NCBI GenBank assembly: GCA_030691865.1
Contig: JAUYDL010000041.1
Span: forward strand, 758 to 64,757
Origin: Candidatus Omnitrophota bacterium
GTDB taxonomy: Bacteria > Omnitrophota > Gorgyraeia > Gygaellales > Profunditerraquicolaceae
Direction: 5' to 3'
Length of the DNA stretch: 64,000 nucleotides
Below, one piece after another: positions 3,710 through 58,742 of this stretch. Both the position numbers and the translations under genes were made by a program. The notes under the pieces are model-generated. The model was not told where the DNA came from. It saw only the letters and a list, made by a program, of their open reading frames with translations, and did no database searches. Within the stretch, counting starts at the first letter, position 1. Every line of letters starts with the position of its first letter.

Positions 3710-4177
3710 TTACTTCTTTTTCTTATCTTTACCCAGAATATCCTTTAACTCCACCAAGAATTGCCCCACATCTTTAAACTGTCGATATACTGAAGCAAAG
3801 CGCACATAGGCCACATCGTCAATTAATTTTAACCTCTCCATTACCAATTCGCCTATCCGGCTGGCCAAAACCTCCCGATCGCTTTTTTTCTGGATGGAGT
3901 GCTCAACCTGGGTGACCACATCCTCCATCTTCTCCACGCTCACCGGCCTCTTCTCACAAGCCCGGATAATCCCGGCTAGAACTTTTTTACGATCCCAAGT
4001 CTCCCGGCGCCCATCCTTCTTAATCACCAGCAAAGAAACCTCTTCCACGTATTCATAGGTAGTAAACCGCTTGCCGCACTTTAAACATTCTCTTCTGCGC
4101 CTGACGGCTGACTCTTCGGCTGTAGCGCGGGAATCCACCACTTTATCTTCTTTATACCCGCAAGACGGACATCTCAT
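3710..4177 (-). CDS. nrdR: transcriptional repressor NrdR
   Basis: MRCPSCGYKEDKVVDSRATAEE...ECLKCGKRFTTYE zinc ribbon followed by an ATP-cone. Confidence 0.9.
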   Translation of the reverse strand: MRCPSCGYKEDKVVDSRATAEESAVRRRRECLKCGKRFTTYEYVEEVSLLVIKKDGRRETWDRKKVLAGIIRACEKRPVSVEKMEDVVTQVEHSIQKKSDREVLASRIGELVMERLKLIDDVAYVRFASVYRQFKDVGQFLVELKDILGKDKKKK

Positions 4178-4248
4178 CCCGCACCTTCTTTCTTATTTAA
4201 TTTATTAAACCACATGACTTTAATAGTTGAATATATAGAAGGTGCGGG
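4178..4248 (-). promoter_or_regulatory. long inverted repeat spanning the whole comEB-nrdR spacer; one arm contains the nrdR ribosome binding site
   Basis: cccgcaccttct (4178..4189) pairs with agaaggtgcggg (4237..4248) around an AT-rich 47-nt loop. On the mRNA strand GAAGGTGCGGG-ATG lies inside the stem. Confidence 0.35.
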
Positions 4249-4250
4249 GC

Positions 4251-4712
4251 TCATATTTTCCTTATTTTAATTTTTGCCTGCTTTAAAAATTCCATGGCCA
4301 ACTTATCCGGATAACCTCGCGCAATGACAATCTCTTTTATCCCGGCATTAATCAGCATTTTAGCGCAAATCACACATGGCTGATTAGTAGCGTATAATGT
4401 GGCACCCTTAACGCTAATGCCGTGCAAAGATGACTGAATAAGCGCGTTCTGCTCGGCATGCAGGGCGCGGCATAATTCATGGCGCTCTCCCGAAGGGATT
4501 TTTAATTTTAGGCGAAGACAACCAATTTCCACGCAGTGTTTTAAACCGCTGGGAGCACCGTTGTAACCGGTAGCCAAAATTCTTTTCTCCCTGACTAAAA
4601 CTGCCCCCACGCTGCGGCGCAGACAGGTAGATCTCTTGGCAACTAACCCTGCCATCTCTAAAAAATATTCATCCCAGCTTGGACGCTTATCTGCAGGTAT
4701 TTTCTTTTTCAA
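4251..4712 (-). CDS. dCMP deaminase / ComEB-type cytidine-deoxycytidylate deaminase
   Basis: HAEQNAL ... PCVICAKML zinc-binding CDA signature. 153 aa. Confidence 0.75.
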
Positions 4713-4714
4713 TT

Positions 4715-5962
4715 TTATTTTAATAGCTCCGTATATAATGGAAATTTCTTGGTTAGGACAATTACCTCTTTTTTAATCTGCGTTAATTTTTCCGGGCTAC
4801 CCGGATTTTCCAGCGCATCGTTAATTAGCCCGGCAATCTGGCGCATCTGGGGCTCTTTCATGTTACGGGTACTTACCGCCGCAGTTCCCAGGCGGATACC
4901 GCTGGTAACTGTCGGGCTCTTTAAATCAAAAGGAATAAGATTCTTATTCACCGTAATATTAACTTCACCCAGAATTTTTGAGGCATCGCTGCCTGTAACA
5001 TTCTTGGCATTTAAATCTACCAGTATTAAATGCGTATCCGTGCCTCCGGAAACAATGCGAAAACCTTTTTTCTCTAAGGCCCCGGCTAACTCTACGGCAT
5101 TTTTCATCAACTGCATCTGATACTGTTTAAACTCCTCAGTCATCGCCTCGCCAAAGGCTACGGCCTTAGCGGCAATCACATGCATCAATGCCCCGCCCTG
5201 AATTCCGGGAAAAATCTGGCTATCAATCTTTTTAGCAAACTCTTTTTTACACAAGATAAACCCGCCGCGCGGGCCGCGTAAAGTCTTATGGGTGGTGGAG
5301 CTGACAAACTCCGCATAAGGCACCGGCGATGGATGCAAACCGGCTGCCACTAGCCCCGCGATATGCGCCATATCCACAAATAGATATGCTCCCACAGTAT
5401 CAGCAATCTGGCGGAATTTTTTAAAATCAATCGTCCGGGGATATGCCGAAGCCCCGGCCAAAATCATCTTGGGCTTATGGATTTTGGCTAATTCCAGGAT
5501 AACCTCATAATCCAGGCTTTCAGTTTTTCTATCTACGCCATAACCAACCATTTTAAAAAATCTTCCGGAAAAATTATGCGGATGGCCGTGAGTGAGGTGG
5601 CCTCCTGCGGCTAGATCCATGGCCAAAACAGTATCTCCCGGATTAACCGCCGCAAAATATACCGCCATATTGGCCTGTGAACCGGAATGCGGCTGGACAT
5701 TGACATGCTCTGCGCCAAAGATGCTCTTGGCCCGCTGGATTGCCAGGCTCTCCACAATATCCACATATTCGCATCCGCCATACCAACGTTTACCAGGATA
5801 CCCTTCGGCATATTTATTCGTTAGCACTGAACCCTGCGCCTCTAAAACTGCCAAAGAAGCGAAATTCTCCGAGGCGATAAGCTCTAGATTATCATTCTGA
5901 CGCCTTAATTCTTTTTGAATCGCGGCAAAAATCTCCGGGTCTGTTTGTTTTAAATGTTTCAC
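4715..5962 (-). CDS. glyA: serine hydroxymethyltransferase
   Basis: Full-length SHMT homology ([19 protein letters not shown]). The ORF track starts at TTG 5971, but AGGAG at 5972..5976 is 9 nt from GTG 5962, giving the typical N-terminus [12 protein letters not shown]. Start placed at 5962. Confidence 0.9.
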
Positions 5963-5975
5963 TTTGCACAACTCC

Positions 5976-6021
5976 TTGTCTACCTAGACAACACCGACGC
6001 AATACCGCTTAGCGTCGGGTG
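5976..6021. repeat. REP-like element copy 1: 16-bp perfect palindrome TTGTCTACCTAGACAA plus GC hairpin, between rpiB and glyA
   Basis: Seen directly. The hairpin arm gcgtcgggtgcc encodes the last codons (GTRR-stop) of rpiB. Confidence 0.5.
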
Positions 6022-6467
6022 CCTATTTTTCTATCGATCTGATTAATTAATTTTATTCTCCTTAAATACCTGCCCCCTAAAAACTTGGTATTTAGCCAGG
6101 CCCAAACCATTCTTTTGGCTAAATCCGCTTTTACAAATCCTGAACCCAGAACCAAAACATTGCTGTCATTATGCTGACGGCTAAGTTTAGCTATTTTAAG
6201 ATTATCGCAAAGTGCGGCGCGCACTCCCGGCAATCTGTTGGCCACAATCGAATTCCCAACTCCGCTTTTACAGATAAGTATACCGCGCTTGGATTTGCCG
6301 CTTGAGATATTTTTAGCTAAATCATAAGCATGCACCGGATAATCGCAGCGCTCTAAAGAATAGGTGCCTAAATCTTTTACGCTGATTGCCTTCTTTTGAA
6401 GATAGGCCTTTAATTTTTCTTTTAAAGTAAATCCGGCATGATCTGAGGCAATCAATAACTTGGTCAT
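6009..6467 (-). CDS. rpiB: ribose-5-phosphate isomerase B
   Basis: MTKLLIASDHAGFTLKEKL..., RpiB/LacAB family. Confidence 0.85.
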   Translation of the reverse strand: MTKLLIASDHAGFTLKEKLKAYLQKKAISVKDLGTYSLERCDYPVHAYDLAKNISSGKSKRGILICKSGVGNSIVANRLPGVRAALCDNLKIAKLSRQHNDSNVLVLGSGFVKADLAKRMVWAWLNTKFLGGRYLRRIKLINQIDRKIGTRR

Positions 6468-8078: not shown

Positions 8079-9230
8079 TTAATTTTCTCTCCCGGATGCT
8101 TTCTTTAATTTCTCCAGAAAGTCAAGCTCTACCTTCCCCCCTAATGATTCTACTTTATGCACATCATCCCAAGCTTTAGCATATTCTTTCTTGGAATAAT
8201 ACGCTGATGCTCGATAATAGTAGGTCCTAGGAACTTTGGGTTCTAATTCTATGGCTACATTTAAATCTGAGATGGCACGATCGAAATCACCTTTCCCCTG
8301 ATAAGTCAATCCTCGACAAAAGTAGGCGTAATTATTATTAGGATTTAATTCTATGGCTTTAGCGAAATCAGATATGGCTTGCTCAAAACTACCCTTACCC
8401 TGATAGGCCACCCCTCGGTAGCTATAGGCTTGAGCATCATTTGGGTTTAATTCTATGGCTTTGGTGTGATCTAAAATTGCTTGATCAAAATTGCTTTTAA
8501 CATCATAAGCTAATCCTCGGTCGCTGTAAGATCTAGCATCATTAGGACTTAATTCTATAGCTTTAGTAAAGTCTAAAATAGCTCTATCGAAATCACCCGC
8601 AGTTCTATAACTAATCCCCCGCTCGCGGTAGGATTCTGAAAAATTAGGTTTTAATTCTATGGCTTTGGTGTAATCTAAGATAGCTTCTAAAAAGTTTCCT
8701 GTAGCGTTATGGGTAAGCCCCAGATTATAGTAAGACATATAATCTTTGGGGTTTAATTCTATGGCTACACTTAAATCTGAGATGGCTTTTAAAAAGTTAC
8801 CTTTAGTCTTATAGGTAACCCCGCGGTAAAAGTAGGCGTCGGATTGATGAGGGTTTAATTCTATGGATTTGTTGAAGTCTGATATGGCTTGGTCAAAATT
8901 GCCTTTAGTATTATAGACAATTCCACGGCAATAGTAGGATCCAGCAAAATTAGGACTTATTTCTATGGCTTTGGTGTACTCTAAGATGGCCTGATCAAAA
9001 TTGCCTTTAACATAATAAACCAACCCCCGGTTGTTGTAGGCTTTAGCAGCATTAGGTCTTAATTCTATGGCTTTAGTATAGTCAATTATTGCCTCATCAT
9101 ATTTTCCTGACGTAAAATTTTCCCCTCCTCTATCAAAAGCTTCTTGGGCAGTTTCCTGGGCATAAATATTAGCGAAAGCTAAAAATGTTGCCGCTAAAAA
9201 TAAAACTCCGATTTTACTTTTATTCATCAT
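8079..9230 (-). CDS. secreted tetratricopeptide-repeat protein
   Basis: Signal peptide followed by about ten 34-aa TPR units (AxxYxxRGxxYxxxGxFDQAIxDxxKAIEL). Confidence 0.8.
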   Translation of the reverse strand: MMNKSKIGVLFLAATFLAFANIYAQETAQEAFDRGGENFTSGKYDEAIIDYTKAIELRPNAAKAYNNRGLVYYVKGNFDQAILEYTKAIEISPNFAGSYYCRGIVYNTKGNFDQAISDFNKSIELNPHQSDAYFYRGVTYKTKGNFLKAISDLSVAIELNPKDYMSYYNLGLTHNATGNFLEAILDYTKAIELKPNFSESYRERGISYRTAGDFDRAILDFTKAIELSPNDARSYSDRGLAYDVKSNFDQAILDHTKAIELNPNDAQAYSYRGVAYQGKGSFEQAISDFAKAIELNPNNNYAYFCRGLTYQGKGDFDRAISDLNVAIELEPKVPRTYYYRASAYYSKKEYAKAWDDVHKVESLGGKVELDFLEKLKKASGREN

Positions 9231-11649: not shown

Positions 11650-11678
11650 CTTATCTCATTAAGGAAACGGTCCCTTTT

Positions 11679-12065
11679 CTATTGTCCCTTTTTTAAGAAA
11701 ACGGCCCCTTTTCTATTCTTAAACTTAATAACGATGTAGAAACAAGTGATACCAATGCTATCAATCAAAACATCTTTAGTTGAGCAGTCCCTGCCCAGAA
11801 CAAAATATTGATGGATCTCATCAGATATAGCATAAAAAACTGAAAAAGCAGCCGGGTACATAAAAAGACGAGAAACGTTCATATTGAATGAACCACTAAA
11901 TGCCCTATATAAAAGAAAAGTGAAATAAAAATATTCAGCAATATGGGCTATTTTTCTTAATAAAAAATCATATTCAAGATCTGTTCTTAAATCAGGAATA
12001 CTTGAAAAGTAAAAAATAACCCCTGCCCAAACAACCACCGGAACCCACAATCTAACAAGCTTCAC
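11679..12065 (-). CDS. VanZ-like family membrane protein
   Basis: WVPVVVWAGVIFYFSSIPD... VanZ-like N-terminus, 4 TM. Confidence 0.5.
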   Translation of the reverse strand: MKLVRLWVPVVVWAGVIFYFSSIPDLRTDLEYDFLLRKIAHIAEYFYFTFLLYRAFSGSFNMNVSRLFMYPAAFSVFYAISDEIHQYFVLGRDCSTKDVLIDSIGITCFYIVIKFKNRKGAVFLKKGQ

Positions 12066-13939: not shown

Positions 13940-14809
13940 TTACTTTTTTTCTTCTTTATTCTTGATCGGCAAAAAGCCTGCCATCTCTCCGATTACATTA
14001 ACTAACTCGGTATTAGCGGGAACCACGATCTTGGCATTATTCTGCAATGACTTCTCCACTGCTTCTAATTTGCGCAGTACTTGCGCATTGCCGGTAAAAT
14101 ACTTCTCGGCTGCCTCAGTAACTAATTTTATCGCTTCTGCCTCGCCTTCCGCCTCAAGGATTCTGGCCTGCTTGATACCTTCGGCTTTTTTAATCTCGGC
14201 GCGCTTTTGACCATCGGCGACAGTTTCGGTAGCAGTCGCGTAATCCACTGCGGCAATTTTTTCATTTTCCGCTTTAACTACTTTGTTCATGGTTTCCTGA
14301 ACATCCTTGGGCGGATCAATTTCTTTTAGCTCTGTCCTGACAATCTCTAAACCCCAGCTGCCGGTTTCCTCACAAAGCGTCTTATGCAGCTCCGCGTTAA
14401 TCTTACCTCTTTCGCTATTAGCGGATTTTAAGGTAAGCGTACCAATGATATTTCTCAAGGTGGTGCGGGCTAAATTCACAATCTGCCATTGATAATTATT
14501 CACGCTATACTGACAGTTCTTGACATCGGCTTCATCAGCTTTTACTTTAAAATAAACCTGAGCATCTACTTTGGCATTCAAATTATCATTAGTAATAATT
14601 TCCTGCGGCTCAGCATCAACCATTTGCTCGGTAATATTAATCTGATAAAGATTTTCAACGATAGGAAACACCCAATTAAATCCCGGAGTGGCAAAACGAT
14701 GATATTTACCAAGCCTCTCAACTAATCCGCGATGCGTAGGGCGCACAATCCGGATCCCCATAAAAAAAATCACTACGGCTCCCGCAATAATTAATCCCAG
14801 TATGCTCAT
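13940..14809 (-). CDS. SPFH / band-7 (stomatin-prohibitin-like) membrane protein
   Basis: MSILGLIIAGAVVIFFMGIRIVRPTHRGLVERLGKYHRFATPGFNWVFPIVE. The start was placed at the internal Met rather than the track start. Confidence 0.8.
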   Translation of the reverse strand: MSILGLIIAGAVVIFFMGIRIVRPTHRGLVERLGKYHRFATPGFNWVFPIVENLYQINITEQMVDAEPQEIITNDNLNAKVDAQVYFKVKADEADVKNCQYSVNNYQWQIVNLARTTLRNIIGTLTLKSANSERGKINAELHKTLCEETGSWGLEIVRTELKEIDPPKDVQETMNKVVKAENEKIAAVDYATATETVADGQKRAEIKKAEGIKQARILEAEGEAEAIKLVTEAAEKYFTGNAQVLRKLEAVEKSLQNNAKIVVPANTELVNVIGEMAGFLPIKNKEEKK

Positions 14810-14858
14810 CTCTACCTCCTTTGCCCACAAGGGCATACCCGCGCTCCCCGCTAGGGGA

Positions 14859-14906
14859 CACCGGCGCAATTCAAATAAGCGCCGGGTGACTTCTTAGCGT
14901 CGGGTG
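14859..14906. repeat. REP-like element copy 4: GC hairpin only plus an extra right arm, between purM and the SPFH gene
   Basis: caccggcgc-aattcaaataa-gcgccgggtg, then acttcttagcgtcgggtg. Confidence 0.4.
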
Positions 14907-14908
14907 TT

Positions 14909-15913
14909 CTAAATTATATTTACCTGTTTATTCCCCTTTACCGCCGCTCCGATAATCCAGGATTTTAATTTAAGCTCAGATAATTTCTTCATTATCCGGG
15001 CGGCAGCCTCCTTTTGAACAATTAAAACCAGGCCAATCCCCATATTCAAGGTGTGATACATTTCCAGATCATCAATATTGCCTTTATATTGGATAAGCCT
15101 GAATATTTCAGGTACTCTCCAGGAACTTTTTTCAATACACACATCAATATTTTTCGGCAATATCCGGCTAATCTTATCGTAAAATGCTCCACCGGTAATA
15201 TGGCTGATCCCGTGCACTGCCGCTCTATACCGACGCAAAAGCTCAAGAACTGGCAAAACGTAAATGCGCGTAGGCTCCAGTAATCCAGCAGCCATTCTTT
15301 TCTGCTCTGCGGGCCTCAAGACTTTTCTGACTAAAGAATAACCATTAGAATGCAGGCCGCTAGAGGCAATTCCGATGACCAGATCAGAGGCCTTAATCTT
15401 TGAGCCATTAATAATTTTATCTTTCTCTACTACCCCCACGCAGAAACCGGCAATATCGTATTCACCCTCCCGGTACATTCCCGGCATCTGAGCGGTCTCT
15501 CCGCCGATTAAAGAACAACCTGCCTGGCGGCACCCCTCATTTATGCCCTTGACTATATCCACCAGCACACCTTCTTTGACCTTAGTAAAAGCAATATAAT
15601 CTAAGAAGAACAGGGATTCGGCTCCGGTACAAAGAATATCATTCACATTCATCGCCACCGCATCAATACCCACGGTATCATGTATGTTGGCTAATTTGGC
15701 AATCATCAGTTTCGTACCTACTCCGTCACTTGAGGAAACCAAAACCGGATCCTTATATTTACTTTTATCTAACTTAAAAAAACTTCCAAAGCCGCCGATA
15801 TCCGTTAAGACCTCACGCCGAAAAGAACTGCGCACCAAAGGCTTGATTTTAGATTTAAAAATACTGGCGCTTTTAATATCTACACCGCAAGTTTTATAAG
15901 TGATCTTTTTCAT
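14909..15913 (-). CDS. purM: phosphoribosylformylglycinamidine cyclo-ligase
   Basis: AIR synthase family, GIDAVAMNVNDIL. Confidence 0.9.
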   Translation of the reverse strand: MKKITYKTCGVDIKSASIFKSKIKPLVRSSFRREVLTDIGGFGSFFKLDKSKYKDPVLVSSSDGVGTKLMIAKLANIHDTVGIDAVAMNVNDILCTGAESLFFLDYIAFTKVKEGVLVDIVKGINEGCRQAGCSLIGGETAQMPGMYREGEYDIAGFCVGVVEKDKIINGSKIKASDLVIGIASSGLHSNGYSLVRKVLRPAEQKRMAAGLLEPTRIYVLPVLELLRRYRAAVHGISHITGGAFYDKISRILPKNIDVCIEKSSWRVPEIFRLIQYKGNIDDLEMYHTLNMGIGLVLIVQKEAAARIMKKLSELKLKSWIIGAAVKGNKQVNII

Positions 15914-15991: not shown

Positions 15992-17392
15992 TTATTTAGC
16001 CGGTGATTTCCCGGTCCAGCAATATAAACAAAGTTTTTCTTTAGGCAAGCCGATCGCGGCAATCATATCACTAAGCTTCTGGTATTTCAGAGTAGTTGAG
16101 CCGATATCCCGGTTTATCCAGGCCACCATTTTTTTATATTCTTTGGAATTCTCATCCAAGTATTTACATACGCTTTTTGGCTCTTTACCCTCAATGGCCT
16201 TGATTGCCCGGCGCGCAGCTAATTCATTAATGCTGCGGGTTGAATAATTAAATTTACAGGGAAACATTAGCGGCGGACAGGAAATGCGCAAATGAATTTC
16301 CTTGGCCCCGTGACTTTTAAGTTTCTGGATGGTGTAATTCTTAAGCTGTGTACCGCGCACAATCGAATCATCGCAAAACACAATCCGCTGGCCTTTGATA
16401 ATCTCAGGGATAGGAATAAGTTTCATCTTGGCCACTAAATCCCGGCGCTCCTGAGATACCGGGGTATAGCTGCGGTCATAACCCGGAGTATATTTTACCA
16501 GAGGCCGGCGCAGAGGCACCCCTGATTTCATGCTATAGCCAATGGCATGGGCAGTACCGGAATCCGGTATTCCGGCAACCATATCTGCCTGGATGTTATC
16601 GTCTTTGGCCAGCTGTGCCCCGCATCTTTCCCGCGAGGTCTCCACATTAATCGCTTCATAATTGGAAGCCGGAAAACCCGTATAAACCCAGAGAAATGAA
16701 CAAATTTGATTGGTCTTAACACCTTTACGTTTTATTTTCAATCCTCTACGGGTGATTAAAACTATCTCTTTCGGCTCAAGGTGCTTTACCAATTTATATC
16801 CTAAATTAAAAAAAGCCGAAGATTCTGTGGAAACCGCCCAACTACTCCCTTTTTTTCCGATTACTAAAGGGGTTAACCCTAACCTATCGCGGCAGGCGTA
16901 AATACCGTCTTTATTTAATAAGAGCAACGTGCAAGACCCCTGAATCTTGGAAAAAACTTTTTCAATACCTTCCACTATAGTTTTACCCGAAATAATAATC
17001 TTGGCCGCCATCTCGACAAAGTTTATTTTTCCTTCAGCCAACTCGGAAAAAGAACTTCCTTTTTTATATAATTCTTTAGCCAGTTTTCCCGCGTTATCAA
17101 TAAAGCCATCGGTCACAATCGCAAATGGCCCAAATTTAGAGTTCATTACAATCGGCTGCTCATCGCGGGCGCTGATTACCCCAATCCCTTTATCCCCCTG
17201 CATTTTAAGGTAATCTTCATAAAACTCAGCCTTAAACTGGCTGCCTTTAATATCGTGGATCTTGCGAGTAAGCTCAACCCCATAAACCGCCAATCCGGCA
17301 AATTGCGTACCTAAATGCGAATGATAATCTGTGCCATAATATAAATCTTCATTGCAAGCCTTATTTGCCACCACTCCGAATATTCCGCTCAT
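15992..17392 (-). CDS. purF: amidophosphoribosyltransferase
   Basis: The N-terminus MSGIFGVV is placed at ATG 17392, with GGGAG 8 nt upstream. DDSIVRGTQ is the PRTase motif. Confidence 0.9.
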   Translation of the reverse strand: MSGIFGVVANKACNEDLYYGTDYHSHLGTQFAGLAVYGVELTRKIHDIKGSQFKAEFYEDYLKMQGDKGIGVISARDEQPIVMNSKFGPFAIVTDGFIDNAGKLAKELYKKGSSFSELAEGKINFVEMAAKIIISGKTIVEGIEKVFSKIQGSCTLLLLNKDGIYACRDRLGLTPLVIGKKGSSWAVSTESSAFFNLGYKLVKHLEPKEIVLITRRGLKIKRKGVKTNQICSFLWVYTGFPASNYEAINVETSRERCGAQLAKDDNIQADMVAGIPDSGTAHAIGYSMKSGVPLRRPLVKYTPGYDRSYTPVSQERRDLVAKMKLIPIPEIIKGQRIVFCDDSIVRGTQLKNYTIQKLKSHGAKEIHLRISCPPLMFPCKFNYSTRSINELAARRAIKAIEGKEPKSVCKYLDENSKEYKKMVAWINRDIGSTTLKYQKLSDMIAAIGLPKEKLCLYCWTGKSPAK

Positions 17393-17404
17393 TTTTAATC
17401 TCCC

Positions 17405-17450
17405 TTGTCTACCTAGACAACACCCGCTCAATACCAATTAGCGCGGGGTG
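17405..17450. repeat. REP-like element copy 2 (palindrome + GC hairpin) directly upstream of the purF RBS
   Basis: ttgtctacctagacaa then cacccgctc...gcgcggggtg. Confidence 0.5.
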
Positions 17451-22050: not shown

Positions 22051-22119
22051 AATGGGTAAAAAAATGGGTAAAAAAAGAGGGGGGACGTTTCCCTTCCGCC
22101 TTGAAGGGAAACGTCCCCT
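22051..22119. repeat. duplicated module: GC hairpin + T-run + two phased (T)nACCC repeats. The second copy is at 38175..38270
   Basis: gggtaaaaaaatgggtaaaaaaagag + ggggacgtttcccttccgccttgaagggaaacgtcccc. It is near-identical to the module upstream of the giant gene. Confidence 0.5.
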
Positions 22120-22227
22120 ATTTTAAGAAAAATCTAACAAAACTATTTAATTAGTAATTAGGGAAAACATTGTTGCAATCTGGCTATTTTGTTTTATAAT
22201 TAATGAATATAACGAAAGGATCAAAAA

Positions 22228-24098: not shown

Positions 24099-24140
24099 AT
24101 TTTATCCTCCCCTCCCTGCCTGCCGTCAGGCAGGCTTACC

Positions 24141-25019
24141 TTAAGCCTCCAGCTTCAAATTGTACTTCTTTATATTATTATCCGCAATCTCCTGAATTTT
24201 TTTGATCTCTTCAGGATTATCGAGGAGATGTTTAAATCTACCCTGGCTCTTTAAATATTCTTGGACCGGCTTGGGAACAATCTGCTTACGATTAGCTAAA
24301 ACGCCATTTTCATATTCAAACAAAGGATAAAGGCCGGTCTCGACTGCTAATTTTGCTACCGTTAACATCTGGTTTGTTTCATGGCGCCAGCCTAAAGGAC
24401 AAGGCACATGCACCTGAATATATTTGGGCCCTTTGATCGAGATAGCCTTCTTTACTTTGCGCGTTAAATCCTGCGGAAAACCCGCGGAAGCCGTTGCCAC
24501 ATAAGGAATGCCATGTGCAAGAGCAATCTCAGGCATAGGTTTTTTAGGTCGGAAGTTGCCGATAGATTGCTTCCCCGGCGGCGATGTGGTGGTGTTTGTG
24601 CCGTAAGGCGTGAGGCCGCTTCTTTGAATTCCCGTATTTTCATATGCCTCATTATCAAAGCAAATATATAAAATATCATGCCCGCGCTCAAGCATGCCGG
24701 ATAATGCCTGCAACCCTATATCTGCGGTGCCCCCGTCTCCGCCCTGGGCAATCACATTAATCGTATCTTTTTTACCTAAATATATCAGCGCTGCCTCGAT
24801 ACCCGAAGCAACCGCCGCGGAATTTTCAAACAAAGAATGAATCCATGGTACCCCCCAGGCAGTTTCCGGATATTTGGCAGAAAAAACCTCCAGACAACCG
24901 GTATTATTGGCAATAATCGTATTTGCCCCGGCCGCTTCAACCACTAAACGCGCAGCAATCGCCTGGCCGCAGCCAGCGCAAGCAGTATGTCCGGATTTAA
25001 ATAAAGGGCTATTTTCCAT
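24141..25019 (-). CDS. 2-oxoacid:ferredoxin oxidoreductase beta subunit (TPP-binding, PorB/VorB-like)
   Basis: [10 protein letters not shown] ... [10 protein letters not shown]. Confidence 0.85.
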
Positions 25020-25023
25020 ATTC

Positions 25024-25069
25024 TTGTCTACCTAGACAACACCGGCGCAATTCCAATTAGCTCCGGGTG
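25024..25069. repeat. REP-like element copy 3, overlapping the last codons of the oxidoreductase alpha gene and abutting the beta-gene start
   Basis: ttgtctacctagacaa then caccggcgc...gctccgggtg. The arm encodes EDTRS-stop of the alpha subunit. Confidence 0.5.
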
Positions 25070-38119: not shown

Positions 38120-38232
38120 TTGCCTACCGGCTCTTTAACTACTATAAGTATGATATAATAGGTAAGAAAAAACAAGGGTAAAACAGGGTAAAAAGAAAGG
38201 GTTTTCAGTAACAAAAGGGGATGCAACAAAAA

Positions 38233-38270
38233 GGGGACGTTGCCCTTCCGTCTTGAAGGGAAACGTCCCC
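38233..38270 (-). terminator. rho-independent terminator for the 38526..38765 gene, also the 5' part of the duplicated module before the giant-gene promoter
   Basis: ggggacgttgccc...gggaaacgtcccc stem followed by a U5 run on the minus-strand RNA. The TTTTACCC x2 repeats at 38175..38194 follow it. Confidence 0.6.
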
Positions 38271-38525
38271 TTTTCTACATCCTCTTTAAAGTATATGGAT
38301 TTCTTAATTCAGATTGGACAAATAATCAATCAGAATGGACAATTATAAAGGGAAAAAACACGAAGCTTTCCCGAATTTGTAGCAAGTATTCTCTGCAACT
38401 AACTAAAGAACAAGTAGGTTTCCCAAGAAATCTGATCTTAAGACCGTATGCAAAGGGAAAGCTTCAGTTCTTTCCTTTTAGCTACAGACTTGGGAAAGAA
38501 CTAAAAACACTTGTTGGCTGGTAAT

Positions 38526-57923: not shown

Positions 57924-58664
57924 TTATTTGACAAATATTTCTTTTGCCGCGTTTAAATATTTATAATCGCCGATGTCAAACCAAGAACCGCTAAATACGT
58001 ATCCATAAACATCCACCTTGTCTTTTAACCAAGCGATATAACTTCCGGTGGAATCGGCTTTTCTTTTTTCATCCTGCATATAGGCGTTAATCAAATTTAA
58101 ATAATTTTTTGATATATAATACAAACACATCGCTACCAGGTTTGACTCCGGATGTTTCGGCTTCTCCTTAAAACTAATTACTCTGTTTAACTTATCCAAC
58201 TTAACCACGCCGTAACGGCTGGCATCTTTTTTCCGCTTTAATCTATACAAGCCCAGGCTGGTGGAGGCAACATTTTTCTTAGAAACATCCAAAAATCCTT
58301 GCAGAGAACCGCTGAATAAGTTATCACCACCGACCACTAAGAGATCCTCTTGAACCTTCTTCTTTTTAATCACAAAATTTATATCTCCGATCGCCCCTAA
58401 CCTGTCCTGATTATTCTTAGTCAGATCATCGACCAAAGTAATCTTCTTAGGCGACTTTACTGTTTTGGCCCACTTTCTAAAATCTGATATAAATTTACTA
58501 TTGGTTACGATATAGATCTCATTAATACCGCCAACTAACCCCAATTTATCAACGATATAATTTATAATCGGCCTGCCTTTTACCTCTAAAAGCGGCTTAG
58601 GATATTTTTTAGTTAAGGGATAAAGCCTGGTAGCATATCCGGCAGCTAAAATTAACGCCTTCAC
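57924..58664 (-). CDS. sugar-phosphate nucleotidyltransferase (NTP_transferase domain)
   Basis: MKALILAAGYATRLYPLTKKYPKPLL. Confidence 0.7.
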   Translation of the reverse strand: MKALILAAGYATRLYPLTKKYPKPLLEVKGRPIINYIVDKLGLVGGINEIYIVTNSKFISDFRKWAKTVKSPKKITLVDDLTKNNQDRLGAIGDINFVIKKKKVQEDLLVVGGDNLFSGSLQGFLDVSKKNVASTSLGLYRLKRKKDASRYGVVKLDKLNRVISFKEKPKHPESNLVAMCLYYISKNYLNLINAYMQDEKRKADSTGSYIAWLKDKVDVYGYVFSGSWFDIGDYKYLNAAKEIFVK

Positions 58665-58742
58665 CCAGCACCTTCTTTCTTATTTAATTCATCAAACCAT
58701 ATGGCTTCAATAGTTAAATATTTAGAAGTTGCGGGATTCACT

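Follow-up and report, generated by a model that had tools for sequence, protein, structure and literature searches.

REP sequences are defined by a GTAG/CGTC tag, a location mostly downstream of genes, frequent pairing of units in opposite orientation and a RAYT gene flanked by the same repeats (PMC3733652). IS200/IS605 elements and the PATEs derived from them carry a hairpin at each end, one end beside a short fixed sequence, and have neither terminal inverted repeats nor an evident target duplication. The pneumococcal BOX and Neisseria Correia elements can change expression or mRNA processing. Rickettsia palindromic elements (RPE) can insert in frame into genes, adding peptide segments.

The 64,000-nucleotide stretch analyzed here (the window) contains four copies of a repeat that we file as a small palindromic mobile repeat, closest to REP/BIME or IS200/IS605-derived PATEs and a member of no named family. 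The original prediction of a repeated composite palindromic element at gene junctions was borne out. Literature searches by sequence and by topic returned no description of it. Rfam at gathering thresholds reported only three tRNAs in the window, and more permissive comparisons gave nothing for copy 1 at E values up to 10 and only chance-level matches for copy 4. The element is apparently an undescribed, Omnitrophota-wide two-hairpin repeat.

Unit anatomy and copies in the window

Read in gene sense, the unit is ∼46 nt long and consists of AGR, an L:R hairpin and a P hairpin, followed by the SD and the start codon. The L:R hairpin occupies 30 nt, with a 9-bp GC stem (4 bp, a bulged C, and 5 bp) and an 11-nt loop; its left arm is CACC-C-NNCGC, its right arm is GCGNN-GGUG, and the loop consensus is U(A/U)AUnGG(A/U)AUU. 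The P hairpin is usually 16 nt, and its window form in gene sense is UUGUCUAGGUAGACAA. On the plus strand, the 16-mer TTGTCTACCTAGACAA has exactly three matches in the 64 kb, at 5976, 17405, and 25024, compared with a mean of 0.43 matches expected by chance at up to 3 mismatches in shuffled sequence, and each lies 5′ of a GC hairpin of the form CACC-N5-(11 nt)-N5-GGGTG. This 16-mer had been called a perfect palindrome, but its reverse complement differs at the two central bases, leaving 7-bp arms around CC (7+2+7).

A covariance model (R1), built from 54 units of relatives, detected four copies and no more in the 64 kb, each of them on the minus strand, which is the gene sense. The three full copies scored E values of ∼1e−19 and the fourth 4.6e−10, and the three full copies lie where they were originally reported. 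Genes around all of the copies are likewise on the minus strand. The features are as follows, with gene assignments from an NCBIfam scan.

5976..6021, minus: core of copy 1, with the P hairpin at 5976-5991 and the L:R hairpin at 5992-6021; R1 score, 76.7 bits
6022-6024, minus: AGG, the 5′ flank of copy 1
6009-6011, minus: TAA stop of rpiB, inside the L:R loop of copy 1
5960..5975, minus: downstream of copy 1, SD GGAG (5972-5975) abutting P, a 9-nt spacer, and the glyA GTG (5960-5962)
6009-6467 and 4715-5962, minus: rpiB and glyA
17405..17450, minus: core of copy 2 in the purF 5′ leader, with P at 17405-17420 and L:R at 17421-17450; 74.6 bits
17400-17404 and 17390-17392, minus: SD GGGAG and purF ATG, downstream of copy 2
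15992-17392, minus: purF
25024..25069, minus: core of copy 3 between porA and porB, with P at 25024-25039 and L:R at 25040-25069; 75.6 bits
25057-25059, minus: TAA stop of porA, inside the L:R loop of copy 3
25017-25019, minus: porB ATG, 4 nt past P of copy 3, without a canonical SD
26513-24141, minus: porD, porA, and porB
14822..14906, minus: copy 4, a nested composite between purM and an hflK-like gene; 43 bits
14897-14906, minus: outer left arm (L1) of copy 4
14859-14888, minus: inner hairpin (L2:R2) of copy 4
14845-14858, 14836-14844, and 14822-14835, minus: P2, the degenerate outer right arm (R1 of this copy), and P1
14815-14819 and 14807-14809, minus: SD GGAGG (within AAGGAGG) and ATG of the hflK-like gene, downstream of copy 4
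14909-15913 and 13940-14809, minus: purM and the hflK-like gene

Because the rpiB and porA stops lie in the hairpin loop, as a UAA at the loop start, the element encodes the C-terminal tails of both proteins (GTRR* and EDTRS*, respectively). Copy 2 is preceded by ∼160 nt more intergenic DNA. The mechanically called purF ORF (15992-17437) begins at a TTG inside this copy; the real start is the ATG at 17390-17392, after GGGAG. Copy 4 had been described as a hairpin-only copy at 14859-14906, but it is a full composite in which the short hairpins UCCCCUAGCGGGGA and UGCCCUUGUGGGCA replace TTGTCTA..TAGACAA. Its order in gene sense is outer left arm, inner hairpin, UCCCCUAGCGGGGA, degenerate outer right arm, and UGCCCUUGUGGGCA. 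The nested stems appear in the MFE fold, and the folding energies of the window copies are unexceptional (z of −0.6 to −1.6).

An absence of further copies would have counted against the original prediction, and many were found in other Omnitrophota genomes and metagenomes. Scanning species-representative genomes with TTGTCTANNTAGACAACACC returned at least 80 loci (here given by L numbers, as are other loci outside the window), overwhelmingly from Candidatus Omnitrophota MAGs of many species, with at least 18 from a single MAG. Among the matches listed (80 genome loci), the R1 model recognized 90 copies in 68 loci. An L:R-only pattern recovered at least 120 stretches from metagenomes and had 0 matches in viral contigs, leading us to reject phage carriage. 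In total, the collected set exceeds 200 distinct copies, of which nearly all derive from Candidatus Omnitrophota MAGs and metagenomes, and it includes 208 distinct L:R hairpins. An exact-protein look-up with the window PorB for sister contigs returned no record.

The paired structure is maintained across the family. Across the 54 aligned units, no variation is seen at the bulged C (54/54) or at loop positions A17, U25, and U26, and almost none at U15 and G22. Covariation is seen at pair 10-31 (CG in 37 units, GC in 7, AU in 6, and UA in 1) and at pair 11-30 (GC in 44, AU in 6, and GU in 3). Compensatory changes had originally been read from the window copies themselves; they hold across the wider family but not within the window, where the hairpins of copies 2 and 3 each contain one mismatch. 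Since the P sequence had been fixed by our first search pattern, we re-sampled it from the P-independent metagenome set, using 27 units picked solely by a GGAG 16 nt after the right arm and not by pairing. All six P pairs change on both sides in this sample, with 96.9% of cells paired. Unrelated sequences that keep the pairing, including UUGUGUCUGUACACAA, UGCCCUUGUGGGCA, and UCGUCUACGUAGACGA, take the same place in other copies. Both hairpins are thus maintained through compensatory changes, with no conservation of the P sequence as such.

Neither strand is favored by the mismatches in the 208 L:R and 167 P hairpins (19 G.U-type versus 18 A.C-type), as expected for a DNA palindrome, and they give no evidence of selection specifically in RNA. 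An apparent sense-strand tolerance of G.U, considered as proof of RNA structure on a first sample (8:1), was gone in this larger set. Three further candidates were dropped. Pairing of the flank AGACA with the P 5′ arm UGUCU is probably incidental, because the flank does not covary with other P types. No properly spaced sigma70 or sigma54 hexamers were seen by eye inside the element, and a scan around copy 2 found no promoter. ACAAGGA at the P/SD junction and the loop GGA resemble what we take to be a CsrA site, and such GGA sites were set aside as both the loop GG(A/U) and the P loop vary.

Position relative to genes and insertion polymorphism

An ORF starts shortly after P, mostly 6 to 16 nt away, in 74 of the 94 matches in Omnitrophota genome loci. 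By our reading, the other 20 are nearly all internal array units, copies cut off at locus ends, copies before very short ORFs, or reverse-strand artifacts (three cases). In most copies, GGAG starts at the first base after P in the sense orientation of the downstream gene, and the same abutment holds when no upstream ORF was detected or the closest one is 50 nt or more away (e.g., copy 2 of the window). SD adjacency is ∼95% in the TTGTCTA subtype compared with ∼55 to 70% in the P-unbiased sample, where an SD lies within 0 to 2 nt in 40 of 76 distinct terminal units. Several P-unbiased units have the SD inside the P 3′ arm (UCCUCC-N4-GGAGGA). On the antisense strand, CTCC(T) directly precedes the element in most copies, and others abut T-runs or other sequences.

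Roughly 10 to 15 copies are located away from an SD, some of them between genes and antisense to both neighbors, beside A-runs of opposite-strand terminators. Three of these copies lie just 5′ of tRNA genes. Stop codons of upstream genes are located either 3 to 14 nt ahead of the left arm or, at +10, within the loop. Some copies are directly downstream of sigma70-like promoters recognized by eye (L038, with TTGACT-17-TATAAT, L007, L021, and L061) and would therefore start the transcript. The downstream genes are glyA, purF, porB, and the hflK-like gene in the window and include dnaN, clpB, rplL, purE, rpsF, ndk, rpsK, rpsO, greA, and parB elsewhere. Given that these are functionally unrelated, the element is not a pathway regulon, and the pathway-specific distribution that had been named as a counterindication is not seen.

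The element encodes the C-terminal tail (-DTPR, -GTPR, -GTRR, or -DTRS) of approximately 18 upstream proteins, with the loop UAA or UGA as their stop codon; examples are lysS of L027, parA of L028, a case in L004, and rpiB and porA of the window. At two loci (L077, ∼7650, and L078, ∼300), no ATG, GTG, or TTG is found at the normal distance past the element and GGAG. The ORF there appears to open with ATA (GGAGTATAAAATAGACTCGAAACAATTAGC), possibly as a non-canonical start codon.

We found five orthologous junctions that occur in both filled and empty states:

rpiB-glyA: filled in the window, L041, and L052; empty in L062, L053, and L117
parA-parB: filled in L028 and L024; empty in L004 and L119
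upstream of ndk: filled in L004 and L119; empty in L028 and L024
porB-dps: filled in L032, L043, L060, and L152; empty in L050 and the window
upstream of rpsO: filled in L038; empty in L176

At the empty rpiB-glyA junctions of L062 and L053, rpiB reads through the SD and stops at a GTGA that overlaps the glyA start. When filled and empty sites are aligned, the insert (GR-CACC...GGUG-P) falls directly 5′ of the native GGAG(G), with the SD retained 3′ of the insert. The claim that the C-terminal codons and stops of rpiB and porA come from the element was upheld, as element-free orthologous junctions have different, overlapping gene ends. The element shows insertion polymorphism, rewrites upstream C termini, and separates formerly overlapping genes.

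No convincing target duplication or terminal inverted repeats were detected at these five junctions or in one intragenic case. The element ends (GRCACC... and ...AGACAA) are not inverted repeats of each other, and the flanks (AGR and GGAG) are not mutual duplicates; AAG/AGG was rejected as a target-site duplication because AGA predominates on the 5′ side whereas AGG is found on the 3′ side. The intragenic copy (L059, 1460-1515) is antisense and forms an in-frame 45-nt insertion that adds 15 residues (SATWRTPTQYQSAPG) near the N terminus of a conserved protein of 359 aa; the L124 ortholog has no such insertion. Units are also nested in the loops of other units, with inner and outer arms each matching their own partner (L023, L064, and L018), and occur as head-to-tail tandems and as hybrid hairpins with mismatched arms. 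At the porB-dps junction, arm and P subtypes differ by species (AACGC, CGCGC, GGCGC with another P, and a nested form), a pattern that argues for turnover or gene conversion and not for simple vertical descent.

The element is 93% identical in 14 orthologous filled pairs, compared with 73% for the 40-nt 5′ flank and 73% for four-fold-type third codon positions in the same pairs. In one pair, third positions are saturated at 23% and the element still matches at 42 of 46 positions. Because the element is far better conserved than neutral sites, it may have a host function. The conservation could reflect either purifying selection or concerted evolution, both of which would fit equally.

Other repeats were noted alongside the element. 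At the window porB-dps junction (∼24100-24140), an unrelated GCCTGCC..GGCAGGC palindrome (GCCTGCCTGACGGCAGGCAGG) takes the place of the element just 5′ of the SD. A similar palindrome is present in L022, L120, and L100, and palindromes of the GCCTGCC type also turn up elsewhere, in one case as an insertion in a P hairpin. Another repeat family, ∼80 nt long (window 4174-4253 and 58661-58740, 85% identical; also L074, ∼6160-6200) forms a long-range inverted repeat, CCCGCACCTTCT...AGAAGGTGCGGG, that fills the intercistronic spacer. Its 3′ arm in gene sense, AGAAGGUGCGGG, runs into the next ATG, and in L074 it directly follows an L:R-P unit. GC hairpins between T/A runs, GGGGACGTTTCCCTTC...GAAGGGAAACGTCCCC, are repeated at window positions 22056-22125, 38208-38277, and 11651-11715 and look like a family of bidirectional terminators. 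Finally, at least six tandem copies of a 102-nt (34-codon) unit at 8182-9092, inside ORF 8079-9230, suggest a TPR-like repeat protein.

Comparison with described families and search for a mobilizer

The element resembles REP/BIME sequences in being a short, GC-rich, imperfect palindrome with many dispersed copies and species-level subfamilies, in forming mosaic modular clusters, in its probable co-transcription with its neighbors, in its occasional intragenic copies, and in lacking terminal inverted repeats. Like REP, it presents a palindromic unit of 20 to 40 bp in many extragenic copies (here, an L:R hairpin of 30 nt and 4 copies in 64 kb). Unlike REP, it has no unpaired GTAG/CGTC tag: its 5′ flank reads AGR, P follows directly on the 3′ side, and the only GTAG is one within the most common P variant, with none in the other variants. 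It also lies 5′ of genes and abuts the SD, whereas REP lies downstream of genes, and its units are arrayed head-to-tail or nested rather than as inverted dimers. In ∼1.5 Mb of loci, we found no RAYT gene with the element on its flanks, and there is no sequence similarity to proteobacterial families. Because the element lacks the defining REP features that were tested, we file it outside the named families. The earlier term “REP-like” survives as an analogy but not as an assignment, given the missing tag, downstream location, and inverted dimers; nor was a flanked RAYT gene detected in the loci searched.

The resemblance to IS200/IS605 elements and PATEs includes a hairpin at each end, the absence of terminal inverted repeats and of an evident target duplication, and, in most copies, one end beside a short fixed sequence (for the element, antisense CTCC(T)), although selection could produce the same pattern. 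Like IS200/IS605 hairpins, the L:R hairpin has an extrahelical base, which we take to be of the kind that TnpA recognizes in IS608. The element differs in that no cognate tnpA/tnpB with the same ends was seen and in that its target is a functional motif (the SD complement) to which adjacency is frequent but not universal. Its strand logic with respect to replication also does not simply fit. Plus-strand GC skew is negative throughout the window, indicating that the sense strand has the leading-strand sequence, which is also that of the lagging-strand template. Because the CTCC(T) target is on the antisense strand and the lagging-strand template corresponds to sense, the simplest IS200/IS605-like mechanism fits poorly.

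Other families are more distant in architecture. In contrast to MITEs, the element has neither terminal inverted repeats nor a target-site duplication. Like BOX and Correia elements, it is a small modular or composite intergenic repeat near gene starts that would be transcribed with the gene, but those repeats are larger (∼100 to 300 bp), neither abuts the SD at a fixed base, and Correia elements carry a TA duplication as well as terminal inverted repeats. The element recalls RPE through the 15 codons inserted in L059 and through the -DTPR and -GTRR tails; RPE are 100 to 150 bp and mostly intragenic, whereas the element is mostly intercistronic and beside an SD.

We searched for Y1 transposases with tblastn and found no Y1 gene in the window or beside an element in ∼1.5 Mb of loci. 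IS200-like (PF01797) Y1_Tnp genes were detected in only L035 and L153 of these loci, flanked by other palindromes. The L035 gene (4173-4751; IS200-like or RAYT-like) has its own hairpin repeat, CTAACCAGGTTAAAAAGGGGGCTTTTTAACCTAGTTAG, present four times in the locus, including both flanks (4100-4145 and 4735-4775) and 5862-5878, and the second gene (L153, 3792-4466) has different flanking repeats. A search of the DNA examined for an autonomous copy, with arms or hairpins split by an ORF, returned only chance pairs.

Competing explanations and implications

We consider the element to be a short, non-autonomous palindromic DNA repeat, specific to Omnitrophota and REP/BIME- or PATE-like, that propagates as DNA with a preference for the 5′ edge of the SD, and we assign this reading a probability of roughly 0.55. 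The favored site of insertion is the exact 5′ edge of the SD GGAG(G), sense to the downstream gene. Units also enter the loops of resident copies, giving nested and tandem arrays, with A-runs by terminators, sites ahead of tRNA genes, and one in-frame coding position as rarer insertion sites. Insertion between a promoter or upstream cistron and the SD separates formerly overlapping genes, and translation of the left arm and loop leaves the upstream protein with a different C terminus and stop (such as -DTPR* or -GTRR*). We infer that the element spreads as DNA and is co-transcribed; within the mRNA, the unit would leave stable stem-loops directly 5′ of the SD, and these may be neutral or mildly useful as 5′ stabilizers or ribosome-binding-site insulators.

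The mobilizer would most likely be a hairpin-recognizing single-strand (HUH/Y1-type) transposase acting in trans, as suggested by the absence of inverted repeats and duplication, the fixed neighboring motif, and the extrahelical base. That Omnitrophota encode Y1 transposases counts toward the mobile reading. Against it, orientation and SD adjacency could come from selection and not from target choice, and no transposase gene flanked by the element was present among the loci searched.

A possible but less probable explanation is that the element is primarily a host cis-acting RNA module of 5′ leaders and intercistronic spacers, its spread being secondary. Such a module might protect the downstream mRNA, insulate its ribosome-binding site, define where processing occurs, or serve as the target of a global RNA-binding protein. 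The location of the SD within some P hairpins suits this explanation, and in the UCCUCC-N4-GGAGGA variants the sequestered SD would be re-opened by a ribosome terminating upstream (translational coupling). Strict sense orientation and SD abutment, copies right after the sigma70-like promoters read by eye, upstream stops just before the left arm or in the loop, and copies ahead of tRNA genes, as a processing signal might be, are all consistent with an RNA role, but some copies are antisense to both neighbors and beside terminators, one is antisense inside a coding sequence, and tandem or nested arrays and mismatched-arm hybrids are hard to explain functionally. Similarly, the invariant loop positions and bulged C would be expected of an RNA structure, yet sense-strand G.U is not preferred over A.C mismatches, and the window folding energies are unexceptional. 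Conservation well above that of synonymous sites at orthologous junctions also favors a host role, whereas close relatives lack the element at the same junctions with no obvious compensation.

More tentatively, and in our view rather unlikely, the element could be a phylum-wide mobile hairpin that homes to the SD, with the ribosome-binding site as its target, and that has since been domesticated as a 5′-leader and intercistronic module.

An operator for a dimeric DNA-binding regulator, an idea raised in the original prediction, would make the 7-2-7 TTGTCTA-NN-TAGACAA by the start codon the mark of a regulon. The 16-mer has the geometry of a helix-turn-helix operator and is identical in three window copies, but elsewhere the unrelated sequences given above stand in its place and preserve nothing beyond the pairing, no pathway is common to the downstream genes, and the element is always coupled to the L:R hairpin, and we reject this explanation as very improbable. 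Also rejected, and least probable of all, is an integron-type attC or other site-specific recombination site marking gene cassettes, since the imperfect hairpin with an extrahelical base, single orientation relative to genes, and intergenic position occur here without R″/R′ core sites (RYYYAAC ... GTTRRRY) by inspection (the R/P junction is GTTGTCT and the 5′ end AGACACC), between core housekeeping genes of conserved operons (rpsK, dnaN, glyA, and purE), in dispersed copies and not one array, and with no intI-like gene seen.

For a mobile DNA repeat, which remains our preferred reading, the 5′ edge of the SD would be an unusual target choice. The element also matters for annotation: it alters true C termini and gives rise to false N-terminal extensions, such as the TTG-initiated purF ORF, so that gene callers may misannotate starts. 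Omnitrophota remain uncultured, and little has been charted of the regulatory and mobile features of their genomes; the element provides a compact sequence marker for Omnitrophota contigs in metagenomes. It is also a natural experiment on how structure just upstream of the SD relates to translation and mRNA decay. If the SD-homing explanation is true, the element would uncouple overlapping genes, give upstream proteins a common C-terminal tail (-DTPR/-GTRR), and, for a large share of housekeeping genes, determine mRNA stability or translational coupling.
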